Counted from the stretch's first letter, positions 17,257-42,592 are shown. The stretch: DNA of 59,376 bases from an uncultured Methanosarcinales archaeon (GCA_964609455.1 CAZSRD010000002.1:13402-72777); one strand, 5' to 3'. Notes: generated by a model from the letters alone, not told the origin. Numbers and translations: made by a program.

Positions 17257-18402
17257 TCAACTCTTACTTTTAGTTAACCACCCAAACTTATAACCCCTAT
17301 GTTGCTTTATAGCATTTTCCAATCTCTTTTGGTTTTCAGGGGATTTTTCTAACAAACCCAATTTTAATATTTTTAATAAGTAAGCCCAATTTACAAATAA
17401 TTCAAATATATACAAATTTTTATTTTTGATTTTCTTTATTTTTCCATTTATACCTAAACTTTCAAATAGTTTTCTATAATCACTTACAAACCCACCATTA
17501 CACTCAAAAACCCTTAAATAAGAATGTAAACACCCTTTTCTATCTCTTGTACTGTAAAAATTACCATCTCCTGCGAGCAAACCTTGCAAGAAATAGACAA
17601 TTAATTTTTTGTTTGATTTACTTCCAATCAAATACTTTCTCACTTCATTCATCATGCTATCTATAATCTCAGCTAAAAGAGAATTGGTTATCCAAATTCT
17701 TACCGTATACTCTTTAATCCTTTTTGCTTGTTTATCATTAATGTTTTCTGCTTTAATTCCTATAGAAATCAATTTATCTTCAACCTCAATTATTTTTTCA
17801 TAATTAAGTTGCGGATTATACCTTATAGTACATTTGCATAGATTCAAGTTAACTAGATATCCCCAATATTTTAGAAAATCTTCAATTAAACCCATATCTG
17901 CATTCGTAAAATTAATCTCTCTGCCTCTTCTTTTTCTTAATTTTACTTTTCCGCCTTCTGCTTGGTAATAGCCGAGCAATCTGAAAAATTCTAGAGGTAC
18001 AAATCTATTTATGGTTATATCGTTTGGCCTTCCTTTAGTTGAATACCATAACTTAATCTTATTTTCTTCCTCTAAAGCAAGGATATCAAAACCAGATAAG
18101 ATTTTTTCAGGAATGAATGATAACACATCTATTTTATTGTTCAAAATAAACTTCTTTGGCCTATAAATGTTTTTTAAGATTGAAAACTGGATTTTAGTAG
18201 GCTCATTTAGAATATTCCATCTCAATTCTTTTGGAATAAAAAACCTGCCTTCTTTAGTTAATTTAGTAATAAAACAAATGTCTCCAATTTTAATCTCTAT
18301 AAATTGATTGCCAATAGTCTTTTGAATACTTTTAGGTAACCAAATTCGATTATTTTTAATATTTACAATCAAATCAAATTTTTTATTATTTTTTAAATTC
18401 AT
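17257..18402 (-). CDS. Free-standing double-motif LAGLIDADG homing-endonuclease-like protein with N-terminal AbrB/SpoVT-like repeats
   Basis: LAGLIDADG motifs LLGYYQAEGGK and FLQGLLAGDGNF are about 110 aa apart. The N-terminus has two RIWLPKSIQKTIG / RFFIPKELRWNI swapped-hairpin-like motifs. The ORF looks very AT-rich by eye. Confidence 0.75.
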   Translation of the reverse strand: MNLKNNKKFDLIVNIKNNRIWLPKSIQKTIGNQFIEIKIGDICFITKLTKEGRFFIPKELRWNILNEPTKIQFSILKNIYRPKKFILNNKIDVLSFIPEKILSGFDILALEEENKIKLWYSTKGRPNDITINRFVPLEFFRLLGYYQAEGGKVKLRKRRGREINFTNADMGLIEDFLKYWGYLVNLNLCKCTIRYNPQLNYEKIIEVEDKLISIGIKAENINDKQAKRIKEYTVRIWITNSLLAEIIDSMMNEVRKYLIGSKSNKKLIVYFLQGLLAGDGNFYSTRDRKGCLHSYLRVFECNGGFVSDYRKLFESLGINGKIKKIKNKNLYIFELFVNWAYLLKILKLGLLEKSPENQKRLENAIKQHRGYKFGWLTKSKS

Positions 18403-20896: not shown

Positions 20897-21865
20897 ATGG
20901 CTGAAAAACAGGAGCACGCAATCTGGACTGAAAAATACAGGCCGCAAGATTTCTCAGAGATCAAAGGTCAAAAAGACATCGTAAATAGAGTAAAGGCATT
21001 TGTAGCGCAAAAAAATATGCCTCACCAGCTATACGCCGGCCCGGCAGGGGTAGGTAAATCCACCTTAGCAATAGTTGTGGCAAAAAAACTTTTTGGAGAA
21101 AGTTGGCGCCAAAACTTTATTGAATTAAACGCATCAGATGAAAGAGGCATAGATATAGTAAGGGTAAAAGTAAAGGATTTTGCAAGAACAAAAGCAATTG
21201 GCGACGTTCCTTTTAAAATAATATTCTTAGACGAATGTGATGCATTAACAAGAGAAGCGCAACAGGCATTAAGGAGGACTATGGAAAATTATACTAAGAC
21301 TTGCAGATTTTTGCTTTCGTGCAACTATTCTTCAAAAATTATTGACCCAATTCAATCAAGATGCGCAGTTTTTAGGTTCAAGCCGCTAGACGAAAAGGAC
21401 CTCCATCAGATTATTGACAGAATCACCAAAGAAGAGCACCTAAAAATATCAGAAGCAGCAAAAAAGGCTATCATTCAAGTATCAGAAGGGGACTGTAGGC
21501 GCCTGGAAAATGTAATGCAAAGCTGCACAGCAATTTCAAAAAATATTACTGAAGACCTGATATACAGTTTATCTTCAGTTGCAGAGCCAAAAGAAGTAGT
21601 AGAGATTCTAAATCTGGCTATAGATAACAAGTTTGTAGAGGCAAGAAAAAAATTATTAGATACAATGCTTAATTATGGCTTATCAGGGATAGATATAATA
21701 AAACAGATTCAAAAGCAGATATTAGACTTAGATCTAGACAACAAAACCAAAATGCTAATGGTAGAAAAATGCGGAGAAATCGAGTTTAGGTTAACAGAAG
21801 GCTCTGATGAATTTATTCAGCTAGAAACTTTGCTAGCTCAGTTCACATTGTCAAAAAAACAATAA
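20897..21865 (+). CDS. rfcS: Replication factor C small subunit
   Basis: WTEKYRP, GPAGVGKST (Walker A), IIFLDECDALT (DExD), SRC motif IDPIQSRCAVFRF. Confidence 0.92.
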   Translation: MAEKQEHAIWTEKYRPQDFSEIKGQKDIVNRVKAFVAQKNMPHQLYAGPAGVGKSTLAIVVAKKLFGESWRQNFIELNASDERGIDIVRVKVKDFARTKAIGDVPFKIIFLDECDALTREAQQALRRTMENYTKTCRFLLSCNYSSKIIDPIQSRCAVFRFKPLDEKDLHQIIDRITKEEHLKISEAAKKAIIQVSEGDCRRLENVMQSCTAISKNITEDLIYSLSSVAEPKEVVEILNLAIDNKFVEARKKLLDTMLNYGLSGIDIIKQIQKQILDLDLDNKTKMLMVEKCGEIEFRLTEGSDEFIQLETLLAQFTLSKKQ

Positions 21866-21881
21866 AAAATAAATAAGAAAA

Positions 21882-22811
21882 TCAGGTTGTGTGCTTGACC
21901 ATAACACTAACTTCTTCATGTTCTTTGTAATCATAGACTACCCTCATGTTTACCTTCTTTTCAAAGTCCTTTCCATCTATTGAGGGATCACTAGTATCCT
22001 GTGTGCATCTTAGCATCCTTTTCCCGCCATACAATGTGATATAGCCTGTAGTAGCAGTGCCATCACTCAAGCCAGAGCATTCTAAACCAGTTAAGCCAGT
22101 CTCAATCTCAACCCACATCTTGTTTTTGTCTATAGTATCATCACTGCAATCTGTCTCTTGCTTTGAAACTAATCCAGAGCCCCTATGCACAATTTCAAAG
22201 GAAAAAGTAACTTTATCAGTTCCTGCAATACTCTCTTCAAAATTTTCAATCTGAACAGGAGCAGATGAGCTATAAGAAGTTTTTCTCTCACTAACCTTAC
22301 AGACCTCATCCTTTGTTTTAGTTAGATCATCTAAAACACATAAATCAGCTTGTGCTACTGTCCCATAAACATAACACACATTAGCTCTTATCTTATACTC
22401 ATTATTAGCTGCAAGATTCCCCAAAAACTTAAATCCGGGGAATGTTACATAAGTCACTGTTCCAGGTATTACATTTCCTTCGCTATCAATATAAGATTTA
22501 TCCAAATCCTCATCCGGATTTTTTGTAATATTTGGGTTATTAAAATCAGGAGGATAAAAACCCACTAAATCAATAGTTATCTTATCTTTTGGAACATCAT
22601 ACTCTCCTTTGTTCTCCACATTAACCGCAACCTCAAAAGGATAGCTCCCGCCATCATAAACCTCTGCAGGGGGGCTTCCCTCAACAAGGTCAAACTTTAT
22701 AGCCTGTGTGCCACCAATAAAAGGCTTTGTAAAAGTTGTAGATACATCTTTTTCACATCCAGCTAAAATAAACAAGCTCACAACCAATAACACCATAATA
22801 ATATTTCTCAT
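21882..22811 (-). CDS. Secreted lipoprotein, paralog 1 of a cluster-specific Cys-containing ectodomain family
   Basis: MRNIIMVLLVVSLFILAGC lipobox; GGAGGA SD lies before the ATG at 22811 (the track start overlaps the upstream gene). Shared motifs: SPPAEVYDGG..FEVAVNVENKG, DLCVLDD..VCKV..SSAPVQIENFEE, and a C-terminal C..C pair plus VVYDY. Confidence 0.7.
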   Translation of the reverse strand: MRNIIMVLLVVSLFILAGCEKDVSTTFTKPFIGGTQAIKFDLVEGSPPAEVYDGGSYPFEVAVNVENKGEYDVPKDKITIDLVGFYPPDFNNPNITKNPDEDLDKSYIDSEGNVIPGTVTYVTFPGFKFLGNLAANNEYKIRANVCYVYGTVAQADLCVLDDLTKTKDEVCKVSERKTSYSSSAPVQIENFEESIAGTDKVTFSFEIVHRGSGLVSKQETDCSDDTIDKNKMWVEIETGLTGLECSGLSDGTATTGYITLYGGKRMLRCTQDTSDPSIDGKDFEKKVNMRVVYDYKEHEEVSVMVKHTT

Positions 22812-22836
22812 TTTACCATCCTCCATCTTTTTTTCA

Positions 22837-23817
22837 TTAGCTAAACGAGACTTCCTCAAAAATCTTTATACTTCTCTCAGCAGAAGTTGTATAACCATAA
22901 CTCAACTTGATATTTAACGCAGTTTCATATGCTTTCCCTTGCGCAATACTTTTATCCAATCTGCAGAAAATATAACCCTTACCGCCAATTAATTGTACAT
23001 CTTTATTTTGTGCAGGCCTGCATTCAGTCATAGGCACATCTCCAACAGCAATTTTCTCTATATGCACATTGTTCATGTCTCTCCAATCATAACCTTCATT
23101 AGGGTTATTGTCTATTGCCGATTCAGGAATAACTAAACCGCCGCCAACATTCTCAATATATATTTTAAACAGGAAATCATTGCTTGTAACACTCTCCTCA
23201 ACCTGGGTAACAGCAATAGGCGCTCCTTGGCTACCAACACTTATAGTGTCCTGTATACTGCAAACTTTTTCTCTTACTCTTGTGCTCCTTGGCTCTGGGT
23301 CAACACAAATAATTGGGTTGGCAATTGTATAATAAAAATAAGTTGCAGTAAAAATCAAGCTTGGACTGTAAACAGGCATTCCATCAGGCAGATCATTAAT
23401 ATTTAATTGGAACTCAACAGCACTATAACCACCATCTCTATTGTAAGGGCTTCTGCCCTCAAGCTCTTCTCCTTTTAAATCAACACCCTGGCCAATACTT
23501 GAACCTAGTTTAGGGTATATAGTTAAAATACCTTGATCATATCCTCCTACCCATAATTTGCCGTCAAAATCCCCTAATTCCTCATTCTGGGGGAAAGCGC
23601 CTTTATTTCTTACTTCAACAACAAACTTAACATTATTATCATTTTCATATAATTCAGTAGGTGCATCAGTAGGAAACTCTACTTTCAACCCCTCTGTACC
23701 AACTCTATAATTTACCTCAGACGGCTCATCGGTTCTTTTAATCCCGCATCCAGACAAAGCAAGAATTAAAACTATCAAAATAGCCATTAAAACTCTCTTT
23801 TTTTCCATTTTAATCAT
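22837..23817 (-). CDS. Secreted lipoprotein, paralog 2
   Basis: MIKMEKKRVLMAILIVLILALSGC lipobox. Motifs: APTELYEND..FVVEVRNKG, ICVDPEP..KVCSIQD..SQGAPIAVTQVEE, C..C, LSYGY. Confidence 0.7.
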   Translation of the reverse strand: MIKMEKKRVLMAILIVLILALSGCGIKRTDEPSEVNYRVGTEGLKVEFPTDAPTELYENDNNVKFVVEVRNKGAFPQNEELGDFDGKLWVGGYDQGILTIYPKLGSSIGQGVDLKGEELEGRSPYNRDGGYSAVEFQLNINDLPDGMPVYSPSLIFTATYFYYTIANPIICVDPEPRSTRVREKVCSIQDTISVGSQGAPIAVTQVEESVTSNDFLFKIYIENVGGGLVIPESAIDNNPNEGYDWRDMNNVHIEKIAVGDVPMTECRPAQNKDVQLIGGKGYIFCRLDKSIAQGKAYETALNIKLSYGYTTSAERSIKIFEEVSFS

Positions 23818-23854
23818 TTATTAATACCCCTTTATTATTTTTGTATATAAACTT

Positions 23855-23945
23855 TATGGTTTTTGTTTAAAAACCATAACGGTTTAGGAGTTTGTCAAAA
23901 ACCAAAGGTTTTTGAGCATGCTCAGAAATCGCTTTGTGATTTCTG
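23855..23945. repeat. Three consecutive short perfect hairpins in the paralog 3 / paralog 2 spacer
   Basis: tatggttttt-gttt-aaaaaccata (23855-23878, 10 bp). caaaaacc-aaa-ggtttttg (23896-23914, 8 bp). cagaaatc-gctttgt-gatttctg (23923-23945, 8 bp). Confidence 0.8.
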
Positions 23946-23983
23946 ACATATTCCCAAAACTTTGTGGTTTGCTAAATCAACTG

Positions 23984-24970
23984 TTATTTCCCTAACTTCT
24001 TTATCTTAACCTCCTTCCACCCGGTTTTAGTATAGCCATAATCCAAAGTAATGTAAAGTGGTGCAGAAAACGTCCCCATATTCTCATCAAAACCTTCTTC
24101 ATAAGAGCACACTATTGTCCCTTTATTTTCTTCTAAGGTAACAATGCCGCCATTACTGCATTTTAACATATTCTTTCCATCCTCATTTGATAATCGAGCC
24201 ACCACTTTAATTTTATCGCGTATTACTGTTTTAGAACAAGAATCCTTTATATCAACATCATCCTTAACTACAATACCTTGGTCTAAATTCTGGACTAGAA
24301 TTGTAAACCTAGGGATAACTTTAGAAGAGCTTCCACCAATCGGAATCATCTCGCTCTCTATTTTAGTAACAGCGACAGGCGCCCCTTGTGAATCTAAATT
24401 CAAGTTCTCTACTTTACAAGATTTATCCCTTACTTTTTGTTCAGAACCCGCATCTATACAAACAGTCTCTCCAACTATTGTTTGGTATTTATGGCAGTAA
24501 GTTACCTTGACCTTAACTGGAAGCTCTTTAGCAGTTGGGGATATAACACTTAATTTCTCAGTCTTAAAATTAAATGTCAAAATTTCACTTCCCCCTTCTT
24601 GAAACTCTGCATTTTTTCCATTCAAATCAAATTTTATCATACCATCATCTGTAAATGAAAGCCCTTTAGGAATCAATGAATCCTGATCTAGTTTCAAAAT
24701 CTGATTATTATCAGTCCATACCAGCAAATAGCCATTCTTAATATCAGAAGCTCCTTTATTGAATAATCTAATCCCTACTGGCAATATTCCGTTCTCATAA
24801 ACCTCATCAGGAGGGGCATTTTCAAAAAATTTCCAGGTTAACCCTTCTTTTCCTTTATATATTTTTTCAGTTGTAACCGAAGCAGCGTCATTACTGCTTT
24901 TTCCTAAGAAACCTCCGCTGCATCCTGAAATCAGGAGCAAAACAGTTAGTGCTAAAATTATCGTTTTCAT
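23984..24970 (-). CDS. Secreted lipoprotein, paralog 3
   Basis: MKTIILALTVLLLISGC lipobox. Motifs: APPDEVYENG..GIRLFNKG, VCIDAGS..KSCKVEN..SQGAPVAVTKIES, C..C, LDYGY. ATGA overlap with the upstream 821-aa gene. Confidence 0.7.
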   Translation of the reverse strand: MKTIILALTVLLLISGCSGGFLGKSSNDAASVTTEKIYKGKEGLTWKFFENAPPDEVYENGILPVGIRLFNKGASDIKNGYLLVWTDNNQILKLDQDSLIPKGLSFTDDGMIKFDLNGKNAEFQEGGSEILTFNFKTEKLSVISPTAKELPVKVKVTYCHKYQTIVGETVCIDAGSEQKVRDKSCKVENLNLDSQGAPVAVTKIESEMIPIGGSSSKVIPRFTILVQNLDQGIVVKDDVDIKDSCSKTVIRDKIKVVARLSNEDGKNMLKCSNGGIVTLEENKGTIVCSYEEGFDENMGTFSAPLYITLDYGYTKTGWKEVKIKKLGK

Positions 24971-27432
24971 TTTAGAGACCTGACAAAAACAGGGACAGTT
25001 GTCTGTATTTCGTAAATATAATCCACACTTGCCCTATAAAAATAAGTTGCTATTGGTGCGCTGCCTAAAACGTCCCCTACACTGCCTTGTTTCACATTAA
25101 CCAAGCATCTCCACGATTGGTATGTAGTAATAGGCACTTTAACCTTCTTCATCCTTACTTCCGTAACTTTATATGTTTTATAACCCTCTGCTCCTGCTTC
25201 ACTATCTTCAACTAATTCAAACTCGCCCCTGCAATAAGTCCCGTCATCTGTTTCCAGCTCCAACTTATCTGGTATCTGTATTCTGACATCAGTTACATTT
25301 TTTATCTGTCCATTGGTCCATGCATTTTCAACAGTAACTCCAAGGTAAGGATAACTATCTCCATCCCTTAGCAAACCAATTGGCGGGTCATTTGTGCCCA
25401 TCCCAAGTTTTACAGGCCCATAAGTAGAAACACCAACTCCTTTTCTGTCAGGAATGCCATAATGAATCAAAGGATCAATATTATTTTTCTTCAAATCACG
25501 CATGGTTTGCATATCCATAAAATGAGTTCTTAAATAGGCCAATGTTTCAAAATTAAAATTTACTTTAACTTCAATAGCATTCGTACCCTCTTTCAATTTC
25601 CCAGGTTCAAACCTGCACTCAAAACCAATATCTTCAAATTGATCTATTTTATACCCCTCTGCTTTAGCCAAAACATCAGGTTTGATGGTTCCTTTTTCCT
25701 CACCAGACCAACAGCCCATAGTAATATTAATTGCCTCATCTATTGTTTTTGCCCTCAGGTTGCCCCATACAACTACTACATCATCATTTTTATCAAATTG
25801 GCTATTAGACGGCTTTACATCTTCCAGGTATACGCCAAGCTTACTGCTCGGATCTTGGTTCTCTTCTACCTTGCTGTTGTAATAGCCGCCAGTAGCGTAC
25901 TCTACACTACTTTCAAACTGTTTTTGTATGTTTGCAGGTATAGCCTTTATCTTTGCAATAACATTATCAAAAAATCCTTTTGCTTGGGCTACTTCAGCAC
26001 TATCTACATTTATTTGAGCCCTTATATTTGCCCACCCATACATCCCCTCTGTTAAAGCGATTATATAAAAAATTATTACAGCAACCATCAAAAACTTTGC
26101 AGCTCTGCTTTTTCCTTGCTGGCCAGTATAAAAAACCAAAAACAAAAACCACAAAGGAAACACAAACCTGTTTGCGATTAATGAAGTAGGTGCAAAATAC
26201 CTTAATACTCCAAAACCAAAAAAGTCAATTATCAGCAAAACACTAATCATAAAATTTGGTTTTGTCCAATCTTCACTGCTCTCTCTTAAAACAAAAGCCC
26301 ATATTAAAGCAGCAACCAATAAGTGATGAGGGCCGCTCTCTAACCCGCCTAATGAAAAAATAGTAGAGCCAGTAACCAACAAAACAGCCCAAGAATAAAA
26401 TTTCTCCCTATCTTCAATTAGATTAGACACAATAACCATAGAAGCTAACAAGGTTGTAACCGTAAGTGAAAGGCTTATATATGGAATTTGCCTAACCCCC
26501 ATTGTCGTTTCCAAATAATTTGCTATAGTTAAAGGGATAAGCACAACAACAATAAAAATACCAGCTTTCCTGGATTTTGCAGAACCCAACGCAAGTAAAA
26601 TAATCAAAACAGCTAACACATAAATTGGAAGCATTATCCTTATCAATAATTCTATGCCGCCTGGTCGAATTAATTGAAGAAATACCTTATAATCCAATCC
26701 GCCAAAATGCAGCCAAAAGTAATCAATCACAGACAAAGCTAAAGTCAGTAACATCCAAAAACCAACATAAGCAACATCATGTACTACTCCAACCGCAGAA
26801 GCACCCAATCCAAATCCTGCCCCTGCAGCAGCCCCAGTTGTCATAGCTTTAGCAGCATCAGATTCCCTTTCAATACGTCTTTCATTTTTCTTTGTAGCAT
26901 CTTTTTCAGCAGTTGCAGCTTCCCTAACCCCCTTTTTTTCTGCAAGATCAGCCTCTAACCTCTGTTTATCCCACTTTCTGTCTATAGGTGAAGCTGTGAT
27001 GTTTCTTCGACGATCACCATCCACAAGCTGACCTTTTGCTCTAGCTTCCATAACTGCTAACCCACTCATACGTCCTGCATTTCTATCAGCTCCGCTATTA
27101 GCTATTTTATTCAAAGCAGCCTTTTTATATTCTGCAATTTGTTGAGGGTTAAGTCTTGAAAGGCCTTTCTCTCTTGCGAGACTAAGAATATCTTTCCCAG
27201 CCCCACCACCTTCCCTTGCAGCAGTTCTTGCACTTAATCTAACTGCACTGTTTGCCGCCTTCCAAGCTGATTTTGCACTTCCTCCGGCACCTTTTGTAGC
27301 ACCCCTCACAACTCCACCAGCTCCTCTCGCAACTACAGCAGCCCCTTTAGCAGCCTCAGCACCTGCCTTCACAACAACTTTTCCAGCCTCAGCAGCCCCT
27401 TTAGCAGCTGTAGCCGCTCCTCCAACTACCAT
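24967..27432 (-). CDS. Polytopic membrane protein: Ala/Gly/Lys low-complexity N-terminal region, ~9 TM helices, and a C-terminal ectodomain related to the three lipoproteins
   Basis: N-terminus GGAATAAKGAAEAGKVVVKAGAEAAKGAAVVARGAGG. Hydrophobic segments span about aa 205-470. C-terminus GPVKLGMG..YCRGEF..WRCLVNV..VDYIYE parallels the lipoprotein motifs. AGGAGG SD lies before the ATG. Confidence 0.7.
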   Translation of the reverse strand: MVVGGAATAAKGAAEAGKVVVKAGAEAAKGAAVVARGAGGVVRGATKGAGGSAKSAWKAANSAVRLSARTAAREGGGAGKDILSLAREKGLSRLNPQQIAEYKKAALNKIANSGADRNAGRMSGLAVMEARAKGQLVDGDRRRNITASPIDRKWDKQRLEADLAEKKGVREAATAEKDATKKNERRIERESDAAKAMTTGAAAGAGFGLGASAVGVVHDVAYVGFWMLLTLALSVIDYFWLHFGGLDYKVFLQLIRPGGIELLIRIMLPIYVLAVLIILLALGSAKSRKAGIFIVVVLIPLTIANYLETTMGVRQIPYISLSLTVTTLLASMVIVSNLIEDREKFYSWAVLLVTGSTIFSLGGLESGPHHLLVAALIWAFVLRESSEDWTKPNFMISVLLIIDFFGFGVLRYFAPTSLIANRFVFPLWFLFLVFYTGQQGKSRAAKFLMVAVIIFYIIALTEGMYGWANIRAQINVDSAEVAQAKGFFDNVIAKIKAIPANIQKQFESSVEYATGGYYNSKVEENQDPSSKLGVYLEDVKPSNSQFDKNDDVVVVWGNLRAKTIDEAINITMGCWSGEEKGTIKPDVLAKAEGYKIDQFEDIGFECRFEPGKLKEGTNAIEVKVNFNFETLAYLRTHFMDMQTMRDLKKNNIDPLIHYGIPDRKGVGVSTYGPVKLGMGTNDPPIGLLRDGDSYPYLGVTVENAWTNGQIKNVTDVRIQIPDKLELETDDGTYCRGEFELVEDSEAGAEGYKTYKVTEVRMKKVKVPITTYQSWRCLVNVKQGSVGDVLGSAPIATYFYRASVDYIYEIQTTVPVFVRSLK

Positions 27433-27509
27433 ATAACCAAACCTCCTAGAATATCAACCCAATCCTCAATCTTAAGACTAGCCATTCTTATTCCTCAGAA
27501 AAACACGAT

Positions 27510-28709
27510 TCATTTCTCTTCCAATACAACCTTCAGCTCAACTATGTCTAATGTATTTTGAGGAGTTATCTTGATAAAATTATTATCCTCCTCAATCCAG
27601 TTGTTGATATTTTTGTCATATAGCCTAATTGCCTCGTCTACCCTGGCTAAATGGTCATTTACATTTAAGTCAAATTTCTTCCTGTTTTTGTCATCAACAA
27701 ACTCTATCTTCAATAAAGCATTATAATCCCCTATATCTTCCCAAGTTGTTTCATTTACCTCAAAATAATAAACAGCTTCAGGAGTGTCTTCCTCTGTAAA
27801 TCTCATATTAATCTGCTCTACAGAATAGCTCCCTTTATTTGTCCTAAAAATAACCTTATTCTGTCCAGCGCTTAAAGCGCTTATTGGGACATCCTGCGCA
27901 TATCTGTCATCACAGACAGGAACAGCTGAAAAAACATTTCTATTGTTAATAAAAACATCTAAAACACCGACAGTAGCAGCAGAAGCGCAATAAGGTATAA
28001 ACCGCAGCTCAGCTTTCTCTAGATTCTGGTATTCTGTATCAGTCAAAGCAAAAACATTCTGGCTTTCCTGTCTGCTTAAATCAGTTAGATCTCCAATTAT
28101 CTTAACATTGTCCAGGGCATATTCATTAGTTGTCCAAAATTTAGCGCCAACGCCAGAAACACTAAACTCTAATTCATTCTCGTTTTGCAATAAGCTTTTC
28201 TTAAGCTTTATTGGCTCAACATTCAGGCTGTTTATATCATACTCATAAATAAGCTCACCATTTAATTTTATAGATAAAATTCCTGTTCTTTTAGGGGCAG
28301 AAAAACTCAGAACAACATTATCAGTATTCTCTAAATCAACAATAGTAAATTTGATTACCTTAACTCTCTTATCAAACCACCCATTTCTTACAGATATGGG
28401 GTTTATAGTATCCAAAACCTTGGAATTTGTCGTCTCAAAAATATACACATTAGGAATATCTTTATCTCTCACATTTCCTACTGGGTCCAATCTTCCAACA
28501 TTTTCAGAAAGCAGCTCAATTTTAGCCTCTTTTGAACTGCTGCCCTTATAATCACTTTTTTCTTCCAATAAATCTTTTCTATCCTCTGTTGGAAGAAATA
28601 AGATATAAACTATAATCACAGCAGCAATTACTGCTATTAATATAGCAGCATTCAAGCCGCCTTGGGACTTTAAATTGTGAAGCAATTTATGGCTTTTCAA
28701 TTTTCTCAT
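27510..28709 (-). CDS. N-terminally TM-anchored, beta-rich extracellular protein; first gene of the envelope cluster
   Basis: MRKLKSHKLLHNLKSQGGLNAAILIAVIAAVIIVYILFL anchor, then Asn/Val/Ile-rich beta-like sequence with a Cys pair (IPYCASAA..VPVCDD). GGTGAT SD lies before the ATG at 28709 (the track start is GTG). Confidence 0.65.
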   Translation of the reverse strand: MRKLKSHKLLHNLKSQGGLNAAILIAVIAAVIIVYILFLPTEDRKDLLEEKSDYKGSSSKEAKIELLSENVGRLDPVGNVRDKDIPNVYIFETTNSKVLDTINPISVRNGWFDKRVKVIKFTIVDLENTDNVVLSFSAPKRTGILSIKLNGELIYEYDINSLNVEPIKLKKSLLQNENELEFSVSGVGAKFWTTNEYALDNVKIIGDLTDLSRQESQNVFALTDTEYQNLEKAELRFIPYCASAATVGVLDVFINNRNVFSAVPVCDDRYAQDVPISALSAGQNKVIFRTNKGSYSVEQINMRFTEEDTPEAVYYFEVNETTWEDIGDYNALLKIEFVDDKNRKKFDLNVNDHLARVDEAIRLYDKNINNWIEEDNNFIKITPQNTLDIVELKVVLEEK

Positions 28710-28777
28710 CTGTATCACCTTTTTTAGAGTATTATCTAAGTTTATTGAAATAATAAATAAATTTATATATAAACTTA

Positions 28778-28828
28778 TTGTTTTAGTATACTACTAAAAC
28801 AATACGGTTTAGAAATCAAAATTTCTAA
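28778..28828. repeat. Two perfect hairpins in the divergent region between the envelope cluster and pelota
   Basis: ttgttttagta-tac-tactaaaacaa (28778-28802, 11 bp). tttagaaat-caa-atttctaaa (28808-28828, 9 bp). Flanked by a 15-nt direct repeat aaacttattgtttta at 28771 and 28828. Confidence 0.8.
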
Positions 28829-28853
28829 AACTTATTGTTTTAATCAAACTATC

Positions 28854-32779: not shown

Positions 32780-33583
32780 ATGATTGTGAAAGAGGAGTTT
32801 TTAAGCAAACTAAGAAGATATTTCTCGTTAAACCTCTATGAGGTTAAAATTTGGACTGCATTGCTGAGCAGAGGAGTTTCTACAGCAGGGGAATTAAGTG
32901 ATATTGCAGACGTTCCAAGAAGCAGAAGTTATGATGTTCTAGAAAGCCTTGAGAAAAAAGGATTTGTGATTATGAAGCTAGGTAAGCCAATAAAATATCT
33001 TGCCGTTCCGCCGCAGGAAGTTTTGGAAAGGGTAAAAAAGAACGTTAAAGAAGATGCAAAAGATCAAATCACAAGATTAGAAGAACTAAAAGGAACAGAA
33101 GTTATTAACGAATTAAACGCTTTGCATACTCAAGGTGTAGAGCTAGTAGAGCCAGCTGATTTATCAGGTTCTTTAAGAGGGAGGCACAACCTATACAACC
33201 ATCTAGAATTGACTATTAGAAACGCAGAAAACAACGTTACCATGATGACAACAACCCAAGGGTTCATAAGAAAAGTTGAAGGTTTAAAGCCCACATTTGA
33301 GAAGATAAAGAAACGCGGTGTTAAAATCAGAATTGCAGCGCCAATAACAAAAGAAGCAATGTCATCAGTTAAAGACCTAAAAGGTTTAGCAGAAGTTAGG
33401 CACACAGATAGCAAAGCAAGGTTCTGTATTGTTGATGGCAAAGAGCTTATTTTCATGGTATTGGACGATGCAGAAGTGCACCCAACCTACGATGTAGGCG
33501 TATGGGTAAACACACCATTCTTTGCAAAAGCATTAGACACCCTATTTGATTCAGCTTGGAAAGGCATGAAGCCAATTAAATAA
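32780..33583 (+). CDS. TrmB-family transcriptional regulator (paralog 2)
   Basis: YEVKIWTALLSRGVSTAGELSDIADVPRSRSYDVLESLEKKGF. Colinear with 2810-3589 through the C-terminal domain. GGGGGTGA SD. Confidence 0.85.
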   Translation: MIVKEEFLSKLRRYFSLNLYEVKIWTALLSRGVSTAGELSDIADVPRSRSYDVLESLEKKGFVIMKLGKPIKYLAVPPQEVLERVKKNVKEDAKDQITRLEELKGTEVINELNALHTQGVELVEPADLSGSLRGRHNLYNHLELTIRNAENNVTMMTTTQGFIRKVEGLKPTFEKIKKRGVKIRIAAPITKEAMSSVKDLKGLAEVRHTDSKARFCIVDGKELIFMVLDDAEVHPTYDVGVWVNTPFFAKALDTLFDSAWKGMKPIK

Positions 33584-33603
33584 TTTTTTTTCTTATTTTT
33601 AGA

Positions 33604-33618
33604 CGAAAAGTTTATAAA
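33604..33618 (+). promoter_or_regulatory. BRE/TATA promoter element
   Basis: cgaaaag + tttataaa. The TATA centre is about 30 nt upstream of the ATG at 33645. Confidence 0.55.
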
Positions 33619-33644
33619 CAGGGGGTCATTAATACCTATCTAAG

Positions 33645-33725
33645 ATGGCTATGGCTGGGAAGATAAATTCAATATTGAATGAGTTCTTTCTAGGTCAAAA
33701 TTTCTTTTATTTTTATTTTTGGTAG
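33645..33725 (+). promoter_or_regulatory. Candidate aromatic-rich leader peptide ORF (26 codons) upstream of the aro-tyrA-pheA-pheST operon
   Basis: ATG GCT ATG GCT GGG AAG ATA AAT TCA ATA TTG AAT GAG TTC TTT CTA GGT CAA AAT TTC TTT TAT TTT TAT TTT TGG TAG = MAMAGKINSILNEFFLGQNFFYFYFW. Nine of the last 13 residues are F/Y/W. Confidence 0.4.
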
Positions 33726-33818
33726 GGCCTCTAGGTTAATTTTAATGCCTGGGACCCTCATTGTTTAAAACTGGTAAACAGACTTACACAAAAATAAAAA
33801 ACACAAAAGGTGAAACAA

Positions 33819-34607
33819 ATGGTTGGAAAACAAATAAGGATGCAAAGAATAATGAACAGAAATACAGGTAAAACTGTCGTCATCCCAATGGATCATGGGG
33901 TAACAGTTGGGCCAATAAAAGGCCTAGAGAACCTGAGGGATACAATTAATAAGGTAGCAGAAGGCGGGGCAAACGCAATAGTATTGCATAAAGGAATTGT
34001 TGCTGCAGGACTCCGTTCTGGAGGAAGAGATGTTGGGTTAATAATACACCTCTCAGCATCTACCAGCTTAGGGCCAGACCCCAACCATAAGGTGCAATGC
34101 TGTACTGTTAAGGAAGCAGTAAGATTGGGTGCAGACGCAGTCTCGATACATGTAAATATAGGTGCAGAAGATGAAGCAGAAATGCTGAAAGACATGGGAG
34201 AGGTATCAAGAGAATGTTATAAATGGGGAATGCCTTTGTTGGCTATGATGTATCCTCGTGGAAAGAAGATAAAAGACGAAAAAGATGTTGAAGCAGTTAA
34301 GCTGGCAGCGCGAGTAGGTGCAGAGCTAGGTGCAGACATTGTAAAAACAGTATACACGGGAAGTGTAGAATCTTTCAAACAGGTTATTGAAGGGTGCCCT
34401 GTGCCTGTTATTATAGCAGGAGGTTCAAAAGGAAACGAAGAAGCATGTTTGAAAATGATAGAGGATGCCATGAAAGCAGGAGCTGCAGGAGTGGCAATGG
34501 GAAGGAACTCTTTCCAGTATAAGGATCCTGCAAAATTCGTTAAAGCAGTATGCGAGGTAGTTCACCACAAAAAAAGCGCAAAACAAGCATGTAGTGTATT
34601 AAGGTGA
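33819..34607 (+). CDS. aroA': 2-amino-3,7-dideoxy-D-threo-hept-6-ulosonate (ADH) synthase, archaeal shikimate entry enzyme (class I aldolase family)
   Basis: [37 protein letters not shown]...AIVLHKG...KTVYTG...IAGG. MJ0400-like. AAGGTGA SD lies before the ATG at 33819. Confidence 0.8.
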
Positions 34608-34626
34608 AAAATGAAAAGGTGAAAAA

Positions 34627-35619
34627 ATGAAGATGTTTTGGGTTAATGCACTTAAATGGAATAAAAAAATAATCACAACAGCATTAGAGAGCAATGCAGA
34701 CGCAGTCTTAGTTCCAAAAGGTTTTTCAAAAAAAGTTAAAGAACTTGGCCTGATTAAGACAATAAGCCAGGATGGAGACCTTAAGCTTGGAAAAGATGTT
34801 GTTATAGTGACAATCAACAATAAAGATGATGAAAAAAAGGCATTGAAAGAATCAAAATCAAAATTAGTGATAGTAAAAACAACAGACTGGACAGTCATTC
34901 CTTTAGAAAACCTTATTTCACAGGCCCGTGGCCTTATAGCAGAAGTTAAAAACTCAACAGAAGCAAAGACAGCATTAGAAACCCTGGAAAAAGGCGTAGA
35001 TGGGGTTTTATTGACGACAAACAACCTAAACGAAATCAAAAAAACAGCATCACTTATTAAATCATCTTCAGAAAAAATACCTCTTGTAAAAGCAAAGATA
35101 ATGGGTGTAAAAGCAGTAGGGATGGGAGACCGAGTTTGTATAGACACATGCACAAATATGAAAATAGGCCAGGGCATGCTTGTAGGTGATTCAAGCTCTG
35201 GAATGTTTTTAGTGCATTCAGAATCAATTGAAAACCCATACGTTGCCCAAAGGCCGTTTAGGGTTAACGCTTCAGCAGTTCACGCTTACATAAAAGTTCC
35301 TGGAGGAAAAACAAAATATTTATCAGAGCTGAAGACAGGAACAGAAGCACTGGTTGTAGATGCAAAAGGCAGCACAGAGATAGCAATAATCGGAAGGGCC
35401 AAAGTGGAAAAACGCCCTTTGATGTTGGTTGAAGCAAAGGCAGGTAACAAAAACATATCTTTGATATTGCAGAACGCAGAAACAATAAGGTTGGTTAAGC
35501 CAAACGGAAAACCAGTTTCAATTGTTAAGCTTAAAAAAGGAGATGAAGTGTTAGTTTTTGTAGAGGAAGCAGGAAGGCATTTTGGAGTTAAGGTAGAGGA
35601 AACAATTGTAGAAAAATGA
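34627..35619 (+). CDS. aroB': 3-dehydroquinate synthase type II (archaeal)
   Basis: MKMFWVNALKWNKKIITTALESNADAVLVP ... GDRVCIDTCTNM..GQGMLVGDSSSGMFLVHSE. MJ1249-like, 330 aa. Confidence 0.8.
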   Translation: MKMFWVNALKWNKKIITTALESNADAVLVPKGFSKKVKELGLIKTISQDGDLKLGKDVVIVTINNKDDEKKALKESKSKLVIVKTTDWTVIPLENLISQARGLIAEVKNSTEAKTALETLEKGVDGVLLTTNNLNEIKKTASLIKSSSEKIPLVKAKIMGVKAVGMGDRVCIDTCTNMKIGQGMLVGDSSSGMFLVHSESIENPYVAQRPFRVNASAVHAYIKVPGGKTKYLSELKTGTEALVVDAKGSTEIAIIGRAKVEKRPLMLVEAKAGNKNISLILQNAETIRLVKPNGKPVSIVKLKKGDEVLVFVEEAGRHFGVKVEETIVEK

Positions 35620-37001
35620 TTGCAATACCAATAGTAGCCTCAACAGTAAAAGAGGCTTTGAAAGACATCAGAAAATCAAATGCAGATTTAGTAGAGCTAA
35701 GGCTGGACTTTATAAAAGATATAAACACAAGCAGACTGGAAAAATTACTGAGAACCAACAGGAAGGCTATAGTTACAGACAGAAAAAAACGCCATGAGCT
35801 TATAAAGAAAGCAATAGAGCTGAAAGCAGGCTTTATAGACCTGGACATATCATTAGGAGAAAAATCGATTAAGAATATTATAAAAGAAAAACAAAATACA
35901 AGAATAATCGTTTCTTTCCACAATTTCAAAAAGACAGATAGAAAAGAGATCAATGCAAGATATTCTCAAATTAAAAAGTTAAATCCTGACATAATAAAGA
36001 TAGTTACATATGCAAATTCTATAGAAGATAACCTTATAATATTAGGCCTTATCAAAAAAGCAAAAAAGCAAAAAATAAAAATTATAGCCCTATGCATGGG
36101 GGAAAAAGGGCAAATCTCCAGGATTTTAAGTGTTCCATTTGGGGCATTCCTGACATTTGGCAGCCTAGAAAAAGGAAAAGAATCAGCACCCGGTCAAATA
36201 CAGGCAAAAGCGTTAAAGGAAATATACCATGTAAATGAATTAAAAAACCCAAAAATATTTGGTCTGTTAGGAAACCCAGTATCTCATAGTAAAGGGTACA
36301 TATTTCATAATAGGAAATTTAAGAAATCAGAAAAGATATATGTGAATTTCCTGGTTAATGATATAAGCTCATTTATAAGAAAATTCAAGCCAATAATATC
36401 TGGGCTAAGCATTACAATCCCTTTTAAAAGAAAAGTTATCAGATTGTTAGATAAAGTAGGCCCATTAGCCAAAAAAATCGGGGCAGTAAACACAGTTATA
36501 AAGAAAAAAAACAAGCTAATTGGATACAACACAGACATTACAGGAGCGATTAAGGCAATAAGCTCAAAGACAAGAATCAAAGGAAAAAATGTGCTGTTAT
36601 TGGGTGCAGGGGGAGTTGCAAGGGCAATCGCTTATGGCATAGTTAATGAAGGAGGCAACCTTATAATAATTAACAGGACAGAAAAAAAAGCAAAAAATCT
36701 TAGCAAAGAACTTAACTGTAGTTCAGCAGCCTTAAAGGAATTGCCCAAGCTAAGCTACATCGATATAATCATAAACGCAACATCAATCGGCATGGAACCC
36801 AATATAGAAAATACGCCAATTAAAAAGAAAATATTGAGGAAAATATCTAAAAAAAATGCATTGGTTTTTGACTCAGTATACACACCAAAAACAACAAAAC
36901 TTTTAAAACAAGCAGAAAAACTTGGTTTTATCACAGTATCCGGATACGATATGTTCATAAATCAGGCTGAGGAACAAGCCAGATTATTTTTGGAGGTTTA
37001 A
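35616..37001 (+). CDS. aroDE: Fused type I 3-dehydroquinate dehydratase / shikimate dehydrogenase
   Basis: N-terminal half: IAIPIVAST..ADLVELRLDF, SFHNF, IIKIV (AroD type I). C-terminal half: FGLLGNPVSHSKG, NTD, LLGAGGVARAIAYG (AroE). One 461-aa ORF. Confidence 0.85.
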   Translation: MIAIPIVASTVKEALKDIRKSNADLVELRLDFIKDINTSRLEKLLRTNRKAIVTDRKKRHELIKKAIELKAGFIDLDISLGEKSIKNIIKEKQNTRIIVSFHNFKKTDRKEINARYSQIKKLNPDIIKIVTYANSIEDNLIILGLIKKAKKQKIKIIALCMGEKGQISRILSVPFGAFLTFGSLEKGKESAPGQIQAKALKEIYHVNELKNPKIFGLLGNPVSHSKGYIFHNRKFKKSEKIYVNFLVNDISSFIRKFKPIISGLSITIPFKRKVIRLLDKVGPLAKKIGAVNTVIKKKNKLIGYNTDITGAIKAISSKTRIKGKNVLLLGAGGVARAIAYGIVNEGGNLIIINRTEKKAKNLSKELNCSSAALKELPKLSYIDIIINATSIGMEPNIENTPIKKKILRKISKKNALVFDSVYTPKTTKLLKQAEKLGFITVSGYDMFINQAEEQARLFLEV

Positions 37002-37002
37002 T

Positions 37003-38283
37003 ATGAAACTTGTAGTAGAAAAAACAGAAAAACTTGAAGGGGAAATTACAATCCCGGGCTCTAAATCACATACAATTAGGGCTGTTATAATAGCATCCTT
37101 AGCAGAGGGCACATCGAAAATTCTAAATCCACTAAAATCAGAAGACACAATAGCAGCTATAAATGCTTGCAAAGCTTTAGGAGCAAATATCAACACAGAT
37201 AATGAAAAAGAATGGATTGTTAATGGATTTAACCATCAACCCAATGCCCCTGCAGAAATACTAAATCTAGCCAACTCCGGAACCTCTTTACGCTTAATAT
37301 CAGGGATAATAGCAGCTTTATGTGATTCTGAAGTAGAATTGGATGGAGACGAATCCTTGAGAACAAGGCCAATTCAACCACTTTTAAAGTCATTCAACGA
37401 ATTAGGTGCAGAAGCTTTGTCTGTCAAAAATAATGGGTATTGTCCAATAAAGATTAAGGGTAAAATGTCAGGCGGCTCTACAGAGATTGTTGGGTTGACC
37501 TCTCAATATGTATCCAGCTTATTGCTTGCTTGCCCCTTGCTAGAGCAAGATTCAAAAATTACAGTTATAAAACCTAATGAAGTGCCATATATTGAAATGA
37601 CATTGAAATGGCTCGATGAACAAGGAATCAAGTATGAATCTTCAAAGGATTTTACACAATTCAAGGTATTCGGCAATCAGCGCTATAAGGCATTTGAAAA
37701 GACAATTCCAGCAGATTGGAGCTCAGCAGCATTCCCCCTCGTAGCTTCTGCTATCTTGCCATCAAACGTTTTAATTAAGGGATTGGATCCAAATGATGTT
37801 CAAGGTGATAAAGCAATTATCGATTATATGAAAAAAATGGGTGCAGACATTTCAATAGAAAATAACGGAATAAGGATCAAAGGAAAAGAACTGCAAGGCT
37901 GTGAACTAGATATAAACAGCACACCAGACGCATTGCCTTCATTAGCAGTTCTGGGATGTTTTGCAAATGGCACAACTACCTTAGTTAATGTTGCTCAAGC
38001 AAGAGTAAAAGAAACAGATAGGATAAAAGTAATGACAGAAGAGCTTAGTAGAATGAACGCAGACATCAAAGAAAGGGAAGAGGGGCTGATAATCCACAAA
38101 AGCCATCTTAAGGGAACTAAGGTAAGAGGCCATGCAGACCACAGAATTGTCATGGCTCTAAGCCTGGCAGGCATGATTGCAGAAGGAAAGACCGAGATTA
38201 CAACAGCAGAATCAATAAATGTTACTTACCCAACTTATGTTGGGTCAATGAAAACTCTTGGAGCAAAAATGGAGGTAGTTTAA
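37003..38283 (+). CDS. aroA: 3-phosphoshikimate 1-carboxyvinyltransferase (EPSP synthase)
   Basis: IPGSKSHTIRAVIIASLAEG, LANSGTSLRL, LDGDESLRTRP, DALPSLAVLG, RVKETDRI, DHRIVMA. Confidence 0.92.
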   Translation: MKLVVEKTEKLEGEITIPGSKSHTIRAVIIASLAEGTSKILNPLKSEDTIAAINACKALGANINTDNEKEWIVNGFNHQPNAPAEILNLANSGTSLRLISGIIAALCDSEVELDGDESLRTRPIQPLLKSFNELGAEALSVKNNGYCPIKIKGKMSGGSTEIVGLTSQYVSSLLLACPLLEQDSKITVIKPNEVPYIEMTLKWLDEQGIKYESSKDFTQFKVFGNQRYKAFEKTIPADWSSAAFPLVASAILPSNVLIKGLDPNDVQGDKAIIDYMKKMGADISIENNGIRIKGKELQGCELDINSTPDALPSLAVLGCFANGTTTLVNVAQARVKETDRIKVMTEELSRMNADIKEREEGLIIHKSHLKGTKVRGHADHRIVMALSLAGMIAEGKTEITTAESINVTYPTYVGSMKTLGAKMEVV

Positions 38284-38284
38284 A

Positions 38285-39439
38285 ATGATGGGAAACACTT
38301 TCGGAAGAATTTTTAGAATTACAACAGCAGGAGAATCATATGGAAAAGGAAAAGGTTCTGCTCTAGCAGTAATAGTAGACGGAGTCCCACCTGGCTTAAA
38401 AATTACAAAAGAGGTTATTCAAAAAGAATTAGATGCAAGAAAACCAGGTGTTGGAAAATTAAATTCACCAAGAAAAGAAACAGACCAATGTGAGATATTT
38501 GCCGGAATAGGCCAAGATGGAGTAACAACAGGAGCCCCGTTAGGAATCATCATATACAATGTTGACACCCAAAAAGTCCATATAGAACAGTATAGGCAAT
38601 ATAAAGACACTTTCAGGCCAGGGCATGCAGCTTACCCATTCTACATGAAATATGGGGATGCGCAAGATTGGTGTGGCGCTGGTAGAGCCTCAGGAAGAGA
38701 AACAGTAGGTAGGGTAGCAGGAGGAGCAGTTGCAAAATTCATCTTAGCCAGAGAAGGAATAGAAATAGTCTCATACACAAAAGAATGCATGGGTATTAAG
38801 GCAAAAGAAATGTCTTTTGATGAAATCAAAAAGAACAGAAGGAAAAGTGAAATCAACTGCCCTGACTTAGAAGCAGCAAAGAAAATGGAAAAGAAAGTTT
38901 TGGAGATAAAAGACGAAGGAGATACAGCAGGAGGAATAATTGAGATAATAGCTAGGGGCGTCCCTCCTGGGCTTGGAGAACCAGTCTTTGACAAATTAAG
39001 CGCAACAATAGCTCATGCCTTAGCTTCAATAGGAGCAGTTAAAGGAGTAGAATTCGGAGCAGGATTTGAAGTTGCAAATATGAAAGGCTCTAAAAATAAT
39101 GACCAGCCTTATCTGACAAAAGATGGTAAAGTTAGTTTCAAAACCAACAATGCAGGAGGATTTTTAGGCGGGTTCTCAAACGGAGAAGATATTGTAGCTA
39201 GAATAGCCGTAAAACCAACACCTACAATATCAGTAAAACAAACATCCATAAATATGAAAACAATGAAAGAAGAGCCGCTTTCACCTATAACTAGAAGAGA
39301 CCCAACTTTAGTTGGAAGATTATGGGCTGTAGCAGAAGCAATGATGGCAGTTGCAATATTAGACTCGTTATACATGGCCAAAGCGTATGACGGAATGGCA
39401 AGACTCGATGAAAAATGGATGAAACTAAAGGAAAAATAA
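38285..39439 (+). CDS. aroC: Chorismate synthase
   Basis: FRITTAGESYGKG, RKPG, RPGHAAY, GRASGRETVGRVAGGAVA, GGFLGGFSNGEDI, KPTPTI, RRDPTLVGR. Confidence 0.92.
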   Translation: MMGNTFGRIFRITTAGESYGKGKGSALAVIVDGVPPGLKITKEVIQKELDARKPGVGKLNSPRKETDQCEIFAGIGQDGVTTGAPLGIIIYNVDTQKVHIEQYRQYKDTFRPGHAAYPFYMKYGDAQDWCGAGRASGRETVGRVAGGAVAKFILAREGIEIVSYTKECMGIKAKEMSFDEIKKNRRKSEINCPDLEAAKKMEKKVLEIKDEGDTAGGIIEIIARGVPPGLGEPVFDKLSATIAHALASIGAVKGVEFGAGFEVANMKGSKNNDQPYLTKDGKVSFKTNNAGGFLGGFSNGEDIVARIAVKPTPTISVKQTSINMKTMKEEPLSPITRRDPTLVGRLWAVAEAMMAVAILDSLYMAKAYDGMARLDEKWMKLKEK

Positions 39440-41075: not shown

Positions 41076-41076
41076 A

Positions 41077-42591: not shown

Positions 42592-42592
42592 A

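Follow-up and report, generated by a model that had tools for sequence, protein, structure and literature searches.

A putative operon of five envelope genes between Pelota and replication factor C

A stretch of archaeal DNA of 59,376 nucleotides (nt), labeled as coming from an uncultured Methanosarcinales archaeon (GCA_964609455.1 CAZSRD010000002.1:13402-72777; hereafter the window, meaning this whole stretch), carries at positions 21882-28709 a cluster of five genes that a first-pass annotation, generated by a model from the sequence alone, had singled out as a candidate undescribed cell-surface system. Reading of the open reading frames (ORFs) placed all five co-directionally on the minus strand at the coordinates then given, and every product bears either a transmembrane helix or a lipobox, in keeping with its description as a set of envelope genes. 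In the order of transcription they are named here A, B, P3, P2, and P1, and all coordinates within the cluster refer to the minus strand. Gene A (27510..28709), defined by its ORF, an ortholog alignment, and an AlphaFold2 (AF2) model, starts with the ATG at 28709 and encodes a 399-residue protein with one N-terminal transmembrane helix; a Shine-Dalgarno sequence, GGTGA, is read at 28715-28719. It is followed by a 77-nt gap, in which a second Shine-Dalgarno sequence, AGGAGG (27442..27447), lies 10 nt upstream of the ATG at 27432 of gene B (24967-27432), an ORF for an 821-residue polytopic membrane protein. Gene P3 (23984..24970), coding for 328 residues with the lipobox LISGC, overlaps the end of B through an ATGA. 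The protein lengths of A and B, the helix of A, the 77-nt gap with AGGAGG, and the ATGA overlap of P3 with its lipobox agree with the first-pass annotation, as do the lipoboxes of the two remaining products, ALSGC in P2 (22837..23817, 326 residues, defined by its ORF and an AF2 model) and ILAGC in P1 (ORF at 21882..22811). P2 and P1 are separated by a gap of about 25 nt. P1 could alternatively be read as a 325-residue protein from a TTG at 22859; as gene callers and orthologs favor the ATG, it was taken as a 309-residue protein that does not overlap P2.

The tight spacing of these genes and the signals readable around them suggest a single operon with an internal promoter. A strong archaeal TATA box, TTTATATATA, embedded in AAGTTTATATATA at 28764..28773, is found approximately 55 nt upstream of the A start codon, within a 144-nt divergent spacer common to A and Pelota. 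Between P3 and P2 lies a 166-nt spacer, varying in length between orthologous loci, which contains, as annotated earlier, several short palindromes (one at 23907-23930) and a TATA box of its own, TTTATATA (23844..23851; this second box is also read as AAGTTTATATA), 27 nt upstream of the P2 ATG. An oligo-T tract at 21852..21881 directly follows the P1 stop codon and is likely the archaeal terminator of the operon. An element, AAAACAATAAGTTT, is present twice in the Pelota-A divergent spacer (28771-28848), the second copy running into the TATA box, and a similar element, ATAAAGTTTATATA, is found upstream of P2 (23844-23858); they may represent a shared promoter element or one of the transcription factor B recognition element (BRE) type. 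A sigma-70 promoter reading was rejected, since the scan counts equaled those of shuffled sequences.

Housekeeping genes flank the cluster on both sides, with the divergent Pelota gene on one and the convergent gene of the replication factor C (RFC) small subunit, followed by those of a PRC-barrel protein, a Cas4-like nuclease, and tyrosyl-tRNA synthetase (TyrRS), on the other. As the first-pass annotation had noted, no ATPase, glycosyltransferase, peptidase, or S-layer family is encoded in or adjoining the cluster, and no second copy of any of the five families was found in the window. An origin from a mobile element or a virus was rejected in view of the fixed housekeeping context and the lack of an integrase or a tRNA.

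Three paralogous lipoproteins and a candidate fourth copy in protein B

The first-pass annotation had built its proposal on a four-fold duplicated ectodomain. For the three lipoproteins, the comparison of their sequences places paralogy beyond doubt: P1, P2, and P3 matched one another over their full length in BLASTP, with E values of 1e-10 to 1e-15, and in hhalign, with E values of 1e-31 to 1e-54. The relationship of the B ectodomain to these proteins is far more remote, being undetected by BLASTP and giving weak hhalign signals with single-family profiles (P values of 0.03-0.08). Against a merged profile of 45 P sequences, the B ectodomain gave a colinear alignment of 237-280 columns that keeps the hallmark motifs in register, and hhalign returned a local score of 32.4 (P value 0.0035) and a global P value of 8e-5. 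For comparison, 30 block-shuffled profiles scored 13.7-22.1 and reversed profiles 18.7-19.5, all global controls stayed at or below 1.6, and protein A, which is unrelated to the module shared by P and B, scored 23.2 against the P profile. In the alignment, LGVYLE of B is matched with xVxVxNKG of the lipoproteins, FNFxT with YxYxT, PPIG with GAPI, and xTxxNxWxGxI with xIxNxGxGxI, and the last Cys as well as the terminal YxY of B fall on their counterparts. This supports, but does not prove, a remote relationship in which the B ectodomain would be the fourth copy of the P module with both its domains. The proposal of a fourth copy thus stood as a remote homology, while its restriction to the last part of the pattern did not, for the similarity spans both domains.

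Folds and domain organization of the five proteins

In P3, P2, and P1, the signal peptide ends in the lipobox pattern [LVI][ASTVI][GAS]C, with the Cys as first mature residue, and both the signal peptide and this Cys are kept among the orthologs listed, which points to lipid-anchored lipoproteins; only weak matches to lipoprotein signal models were obtained. Lipobox lipoproteins are prevalent in DPANN archaea, and the lipidation of archaeal Cys depends on AliA/AliB (PMC12462473). The AF2 model of P2, built from 36 sequences with a predicted local distance difference test (pLDDT) score of 87.3, consists of two immunoglobulin (Ig)-like beta-sandwich domains, and two Cys pairs, C171/C186 and C266/C285, are invariant. 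Foldseek searches of the Protein Data Bank (PDB) and a viral library with this model found generic multi-domain beta-sandwich matches only, with template modeling scores (TM-scores) of at most 0.25; chaperone-usher pilins and chaperones were among the top matches, and the sole S-layer structure in the list was the HPI protein of D. radiodurans (E value 7e-3, TM-score 0.18). An ABC substrate-binding lipoprotein was also considered and rejected, the P2 model being all-beta apart from the signal helix and no ABC genes being linked. The 79 homolog clusters of P2 are all unnamed or 'hypothetical', and those with a named source come from Woesearchaeota/Nanoarchaeota. One P3 ortholog of 645 residues (L020:8025-9962) carries a Cys-rich C-terminal tail of about 330 residues. 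The proteins of the operon have acidic mature parts, with isoelectric points (pI) of 4.6-5.8, and N-glycosylation sequons are nearly absent (0-2 per protein).

In protein A, the N-terminal transmembrane helix is joined by an acidic linker to an ectodomain rich in beta structure, in which two Cys are invariant. Three jelly rolls in tandem are seen in its AF2 model (12 sequences, pLDDT 80.5), and Foldseek against the PDB matched these domain-wise to the C-terminal beta-sandwich domains of GH35 beta-galactosidases, reelin repeats, the carbohydrate-binding domains of BcsB, and PNGase F, with probabilities of 0.99-1.0 and global TM-scores of about 0.2. The model thereby places A, at the fold level and in no specific family, in the class of galactose-binding or carbohydrate-binding module (CBM)-like jelly rolls; no CBM family profile in Pfam matched A, nor did any sequence in the PDB. 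The N-terminus of A (residues 1-40, 28590-28709), with the pattern KKAQ-GG-xNAAxLVAIIAxxIIxYILFLP, is conserved far beyond the needs of a simple anchor. Its KKAQGG-LNAAILVAIIA segment loosely resembles a class III signal peptide, in which a [KR][GA] cleavage motif directly adjoins a hydrophobic helix, fitting at positions -2/-1/+1 and failing at +2/+3, and as an alternative to a prepilin-type signal the helix may dock into the membrane domain of B. In a subclade of A (P0084-P0094; L041:5338-7008; L047:4873-6561), an insertion of about 150 residues between jelly rolls 2 and 3 is formed by two Cys-rich repeats of the type CGDxDGICPxxCDxDxDKDCC.

Three regions can be distinguished in protein B. 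Residues 1-215 (26788..27432) are basic (pI 10.5), rich in Ala, Gly, Lys, and Val, of low complexity and coiled-coil-like, and by the positive-inside rule are presumed to be cytoplasmic; they differ between orthologs, in which only weak coiled-coil-type matches were found. The DNA of this region has a G+C fraction of 0.39, compared with about 0.33 in its surroundings. Word-based homolog searches with full-length B, or with A plus the B core, returned few matches, saturated as they were by low-complexity and transmembrane words. Residues ~216-470 (26023..26787) form a polytopic membrane domain in which hydropathy indicates about 8 hydrophobic segments (220-470), the number in B-family proteins ranging from ~3 to 9. 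Its last helices contain the motifs SW..., H, DFFGxG, and NRxxFPxWFLF, which the alignment shows to be kept in most, not all, orthologs; these polar motifs are missing in L001, L019, and L020. Neither EpsG/Wzy nor any other family in Pfam or NCBIfam matched the membrane domain, and presenilin matches in the PDB (E value ~0.04) are noise. One B ortholog, P0083, is named 'EpsG family protein' at NCBI; this label could not be reproduced, as no EpsG/Wzy profile of Pfam or NCBIfam matched P0083, the window B, or three other orthologs at E ≤ 1. The ectodomain, residues ~480-821 (24970..25995), is conserved, contains two near-invariant Cys pairs (C574/C606 and C734/C776), and ends here without a distal tip. 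Together with the last transmembrane helices it makes up the conserved core of B, with 33-35% identity to distant orthologs.

The annotation's claim that the system is undescribed was upheld in this respect: a confident profile or structure match to a characterised system was sought in Pfam, NCBIfam, PHROGs, the PDB, and Foldseek, and none was obtained. Sequence searches of Pfam, NCBIfam, PHROGs, and the PDB with the five proteins gave nothing above noise, and PDB searches that included a Cys-knot/helical tip of B gave nothing significant, pilus-subunit matches at E ~0.07 being noise.

Strict synteny and lineage restriction of the operon

Approximately 50 loci were collected by three independent routes, namely contigs with P2 or A homologs, a scan of GTDB species genomes, and a metagenome scan with the B motif alone. 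In every one of the ~45 Woesearchaeota/Nanobdellota loci with sufficient flank, the five genes were found in the order A, B, P3, P2, P1 between the divergent Pelota gene and the convergent RFC gene; the homologs are not scattered singly over other genomes, the pattern that would have spoken against a dedicated system. The sole deviant type is represented by L039 (7155-10536) and L040 (110-3269), in which a B-family gene is followed by one gene for a 366-residue lipoprotein, without A and outside the Pelota/RFC context; the neighbors include a TrpB-like gene, an ABC ATPase-like gene, and a 1263-residue gyrase/topoisomerase-like gene. An exhaustive phmmer search with the B ectodomain found 888 representative clusters (defined at 50% identity) at E ≤ 1e-3 and 678 at ≤ 1e-10, and all named members, by the labels of their metagenome-assembled genomes (MAGs), belong to Woesearchaeota/Nanobdellota. 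Seven GTDB species-representative MAGs titled 'uncultured Methanosarcinales archaeon' (L006, L009, L011-L014, and L018) carry the operon as well; this label is probably wrong, because their flanking genes share 70-85% identity with the corresponding genes at Woesearchaeota MAG loci. The window itself is here ascribed to a tiny uncultured archaeon of the Woesearchaeales.

The genes of the locus diverge at very different rates. Among the closest relatives, identity to the window was 80-84% for RFC, 66-77% for Pelota, 62-76% for A, 69-78% for P1 of the alpha type, to which the window P1 belongs, and 58-66% for P2, and fell to 37-47% for P3 and 37-48% for the B ectodomain, the fastest-evolving parts. 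The P1 slot is occupied by one of two types, alpha or beta, which are about 30% identical to each other and 51-81% identical within a type. Which type a locus has does not follow the phylogeny or how similar its RFC, A, and P2 are (L002, L005-L007, L009-L011, L013, and L015-L018): in L006 the identities to the window are 84% for RFC, 72% for A, 64% for P2, and 30% for P1, while in L013 they are 70%, 38%, 55%, and 59%, respectively. Such a distribution points to replacement of a cassette, or to ancient paralogs of which different ones were lost. By the same comparison, the fast-evolving B and P3 and the exchangeable P1 would be the exposed, specificity-determining parts, and the conserved A a membrane-proximal core.

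The wider window also bears on the supposition in the first-pass annotation that the organism is reduced. On the plus strand at 32780-44242, a gene for a TrmB-family regulator precedes a series of shikimate/aromatic amino-acid genes, which encode a DeoC-type aldolase, DHQ synthase II, a fused DHQase-shikimate dehydrogenase, EPSP synthase, chorismate synthase, prephenate dehydrogenase, and prephenate dehydratase; the genes of the alpha and beta subunits of phenylalanyl-tRNA synthetase follow. With such a run, the organism is not extremely reduced and has a greater capacity for biosynthesis than a reduced symbiont would lead one to expect. On the other side of the operon, a free-standing ORF of 381 residues stands beside TyrRS (17257-18402, minus strand; also at L024:7065-8210), and a weak Pfam match to LAGLIDADG_3, of the homing-endonuclease type, is recorded for the identical gene in another sample.

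Variable C-terminal tips of protein B

In relatives, the B protein extends past its core ectodomain by 0 to 679 residues, with a content that depends on the lineage. Pfam assignments on 53 B representatives with an extension of at least 100 residues recovered SLT domains, the domain of family-1 lytic transglycosylases, in 17, M23 in three, NlpC/P60 in two, Amidase_2, Amidase_3, and glucosaminidase in one each, and fn3-type domains in a few, so that about half of the long-tipped members scanned carry murein hydrolases. Among 23 B proteins encoded within the operon in metagenomes, SLT was found in seven and Amidase_3 in one, and M23, NlpC/P60, Amidase_2, glucosaminidase, and fn3-type domains in none. 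The 21-member B alignment (A3), formed by the genome-scan loci and P0081-P0083, contains two SLT proteins (L001 and L021), one M23 (L013), one fn3-type, and no others; the SLT match (PF01464) of L001 scored 45.6 bits against a cutoff of 21.3. The SLT-like module lies C-terminal to the B ectodomain in 27 of 28 cases, with the catalytic ES in 22 and the GxMQ motif in 24 of the 28, and outside B it was found in none of the fetched loci. The remaining tips consist of Cys-knot and helical modules of unassigned kind or of Ig/fn3/cadherin-like repeats that resemble adhesin domains. Many B tips start with a Cys-knot, CxxxCxDxDGCxC. Such extensions are confined to B, the A and P proteins being of fixed length and free of enzyme fusions. 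The window B has no tip, SLT is absent from all five window proteins by Pfam, and neither an SLT-like ORF nor a separate module for any hydrolase of these kinds was found in the window.

A surface platform for cell contact as the favored interpretation

We propose, at a confidence about evenly balanced, that the operon encodes a platform on the cell surface, specific to its lineage, that serves cell contact and the display of effectors, with bacterial walls as the main target. Directly supported in this proposal are the structure of the genes, the folds, the paralogy, the strictly kept synteny, the confinement to one lineage, and the hydrolases at the distal tips. From these we infer a physical assembly, an outward orientation, glycan binding by A, and a role in cell contact, as follows. 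The five proteins would form a membrane-anchored surface complex specific to Woesearchaeales-type DPANN archaea. B would serve as its integral-membrane carrier, with a basic, disordered or coiled cytoplasmic N-terminus, a multi-pass domain, and an external module of two beta-sandwiches with two Cys pairs, and P3, P2, and P1 would be lipid-anchored copies of the same two-domain module. The four paralogous modules and A could come together on the outside of the membrane as a short stalk or platform, which would project the C-terminus of B away from the cell, with glycan binding supplied by A. In relatives, the C-termini of B, which carry adhesin-like repeats or murein hydrolases from each of the major classes, would in this way be positioned at other cells, chiefly at bacterial walls. 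In the organism of the window, the complex might serve as a tipless platform for contact or adhesion, or cooperate with effectors whose genes lie elsewhere.

It is the tips of the relatives that suggest contact with other cells and the positioning of effectors as the job of the platform, and that sharpen the host-interaction reading of the first-pass annotation, whose broader proposal of a cell-surface system for attachment, host interaction, or envelope scaffolding is supported as a candidate. An archaeon without murein needs no five classes of murein hydrolase for itself, which suggests that in those lineages the carrier faces bacterial walls.

Several observations weigh against this proposal. 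The window's own B is tipless, and fewer than 60 residues follow the core in 33 of 144 complete B representatives; as tipless B proteins are common, hydrolase display as such cannot be the core function. The homology between B and the P proteins is weak by hhalign's own probability (9-33%), the fold matches are generic (global TM-score ≤ 0.25), and the mutual binding of the five proteins is deduced, as are the topology of B and its outward C-terminus, which are argued from the Cys pairs and the lipoprotein homology together with the positive-inside rule. The shikimate run indicates that the organism is not maximally dependent. Finally, universal conservation at a single locus among housekeeping genes suits a structural role in the envelope equally well.

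This last point leads to the main rival explanation, which we consider on balance rather unlikely, that P1-P3, possibly with A, constitute the main envelope as an S-layer-like or pseudo-periplasmic scaffold, with B as its anchor and the tips as secondary add-ons of some lineages. The operon was present, in a fixed position between housekeeping genes, at all loci, its products have all-beta Ig-like domains, acidic mature parts (pI 4.6-5.8), and lipid or transmembrane anchors, and the strong TATA box of P2-P1 could raise the dosage of two subunits. Tipless B proteins are common, and both the quick divergence of exposed subunits and the replacement of P1 types are also typical of S-layer genes. 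Known archaeal S-layers are made of one or two proteins (SlaA/SlaB in Sulfolobales, the S-layer glycoprotein in Haloferax), whereas five different subunits are encoded here, including a polytopic protein with a cytoplasmic domain. Moreover, no S-layer family of Pfam or NCBIfam matched, the conserved Cys pairs and the 0-2 sequons per protein differ from typical archaeal S-layer glycoproteins, and the conservation of A and of P1-alpha nearly equals that of Pelota. A scaffold and a contact platform are compatible readings, in that display functions could have been added repeatedly to a core complex of the envelope.

That the complex captures glycans or muropeptides for nutrition, with A and P1-P3 binding, the B tips cutting, and the B membrane domain importing, by analogy to Sus-type systems, appears improbable. 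The CBM-like jelly rolls of A, the tandem beta-sandwich lipoproteins, the murein hydrolases of all classes on B, and the conserved polar residues in its last transmembrane helices would fit such a role, as would the published 'vampiristic' or scavenging model for Woesearchaeota (PMC9723730). Against it, the varying number of transmembrane segments (~3 to 9) and the loss of the polar motifs in L001, L019, and L020 are unlike a conserved transporter, no transporter family in Pfam, NCBIfam, or the PDB matched, and a kinase, ATPase, or catabolic gene is linked at none of the loci; in addition, many B tips are adhesin-like and not enzymatic. Least probable is a pilus-like or secretion-related assembly with A as pilin-like protein or pseudopilin and B as membrane platform, for, despite the strikingly conserved A N-terminus with its loose resemblance to a class III signal peptide and the chaperone-usher pilins and chaperones among the top P2 matches, none of ~50 loci links an ATPase, a prepilin peptidase, or a PilC-like gene to the operon, the GG at the +2/+3 positions of A misfits the usual prepilin-peptidase motif by the FlaFind rule, and the pilin-like matches are generic Ig folds (TM-score < 0.3).

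Returning to the contact platform, a bolder extension is possible, although we hold it only tentatively: the operon might specify an unrecognised archaeal organelle that engages bacteria, a hetero-oligomeric stalk of four modules and a glycan-binding subunit, in which the exchangeable tip (murein hydrolase, adhesin repeats, or none) and the exchangeable P1 cassette determine which host or prey is recognised. Under this reading, bacteria and not archaea would be what many Woesearchaeales live on as episymbionts or hunt as predators, and the type of tip would predict the type of wall targeted. Woesearchaeales are among the most widespread uncultured archaea, and their partners and mode of attachment are the gap addressed here. 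The operon offers a lineage-wide, syntenic, and readily recognised marker and a handle on how these archaea may contact bacteria, and the 888-cluster carrier-ectodomain family and the three lipoprotein families are added to the annotated DPANN 'dark matter'.

Comparison with known systems

Overall, we rate the system as a surface assembly of beta-sandwich proteins, anchored by membrane helices or lipid, for the display of wall hydrolases or adhesins, without detectable homolog among characterised systems; no account of the operon, of the carrier ectodomain, or of the paralogy of the lipoproteins came up in literature searches. Protein A bears a likeness to BcsB of bacterial cellulose synthase, to whose carbohydrate-binding domains its jelly rolls match with Foldseek E values of ~1e-4 and a probability of ~1.0, and both proteins are single-pass and sit on the outer face of the cytoplasmic membrane. 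A nevertheless differs from BcsB in its global TM-score of ~0.2, in lacking the flavodoxin-like domains, and in an anchor that is N-terminal instead of C-terminal; no synthase is linked, and the Pfam BcsB family does not match A. In Bacteroidetes, SusE and SusF are lipoproteins of tandem Ig/CBM-like beta-sandwiches encoded beside a membrane partner and a glycan-cutting activity. P1-P3 together with B show an analogous architecture, with no homology to the Sus-type lipoproteins, and differ in that the membrane partner is a helical polytopic protein and not a TonB-dependent barrel, and that regulator and catabolic genes are not linked.

Archaeal S-layer and lipid-anchored glycoproteins (Haloferax volcanii, SlaA/SlaB) share with the proteins described here extracellular Ig-like arrays, lipid or transmembrane anchors, an acidic and lineage-specific nature, and fast-evolving exposed parts. 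They have no sequence or specific fold relationship to them, and the present system is set apart by its five subunits, one of them polytopic, its disulfide-type Cys pairs, its few sequons, and the enzymatic tips in relatives.

Published counterparts within the same lineage are SLT proteins. Large SLT-domain proteins of Woesearchaeota/Pacearchaeota form fam00969, which was placed in a module whose 51 families are lineage-specific and of unknown function in a study that gives no genomic context for it (Castelle et al., 2021; PMC8204110). Woesearchaeota SLT proteins were also noted by Vigneron et al., 2022 (PMC9723730), peptidoglycan hydrolases are prominent in Nanoarchaeota (PLoS Biol 2025), and attachment to or attack on bacteria has been proposed for the Woesearchaeota SLT proteins (PMC8204110, PMC9723730, PMC12352652). 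They resemble many B-family proteins in lineage, size, membrane anchoring, terminal SLT, and the idea of attachment or attack, the likeness of fam00969 being one of description. In contrast to these reports, which treat the SLT domain only, the conserved element here is a non-enzymatic carrier ectodomain in a fixed five-gene operon, accompanied by three paralogous lipoproteins and a CBM-like protein. The tip comes in at least six interchangeable kinds, of which SLT is one, the window B being without any. The scattered earlier sightings of 'murein transglycosylases' may thereby be tied to one defined machine.

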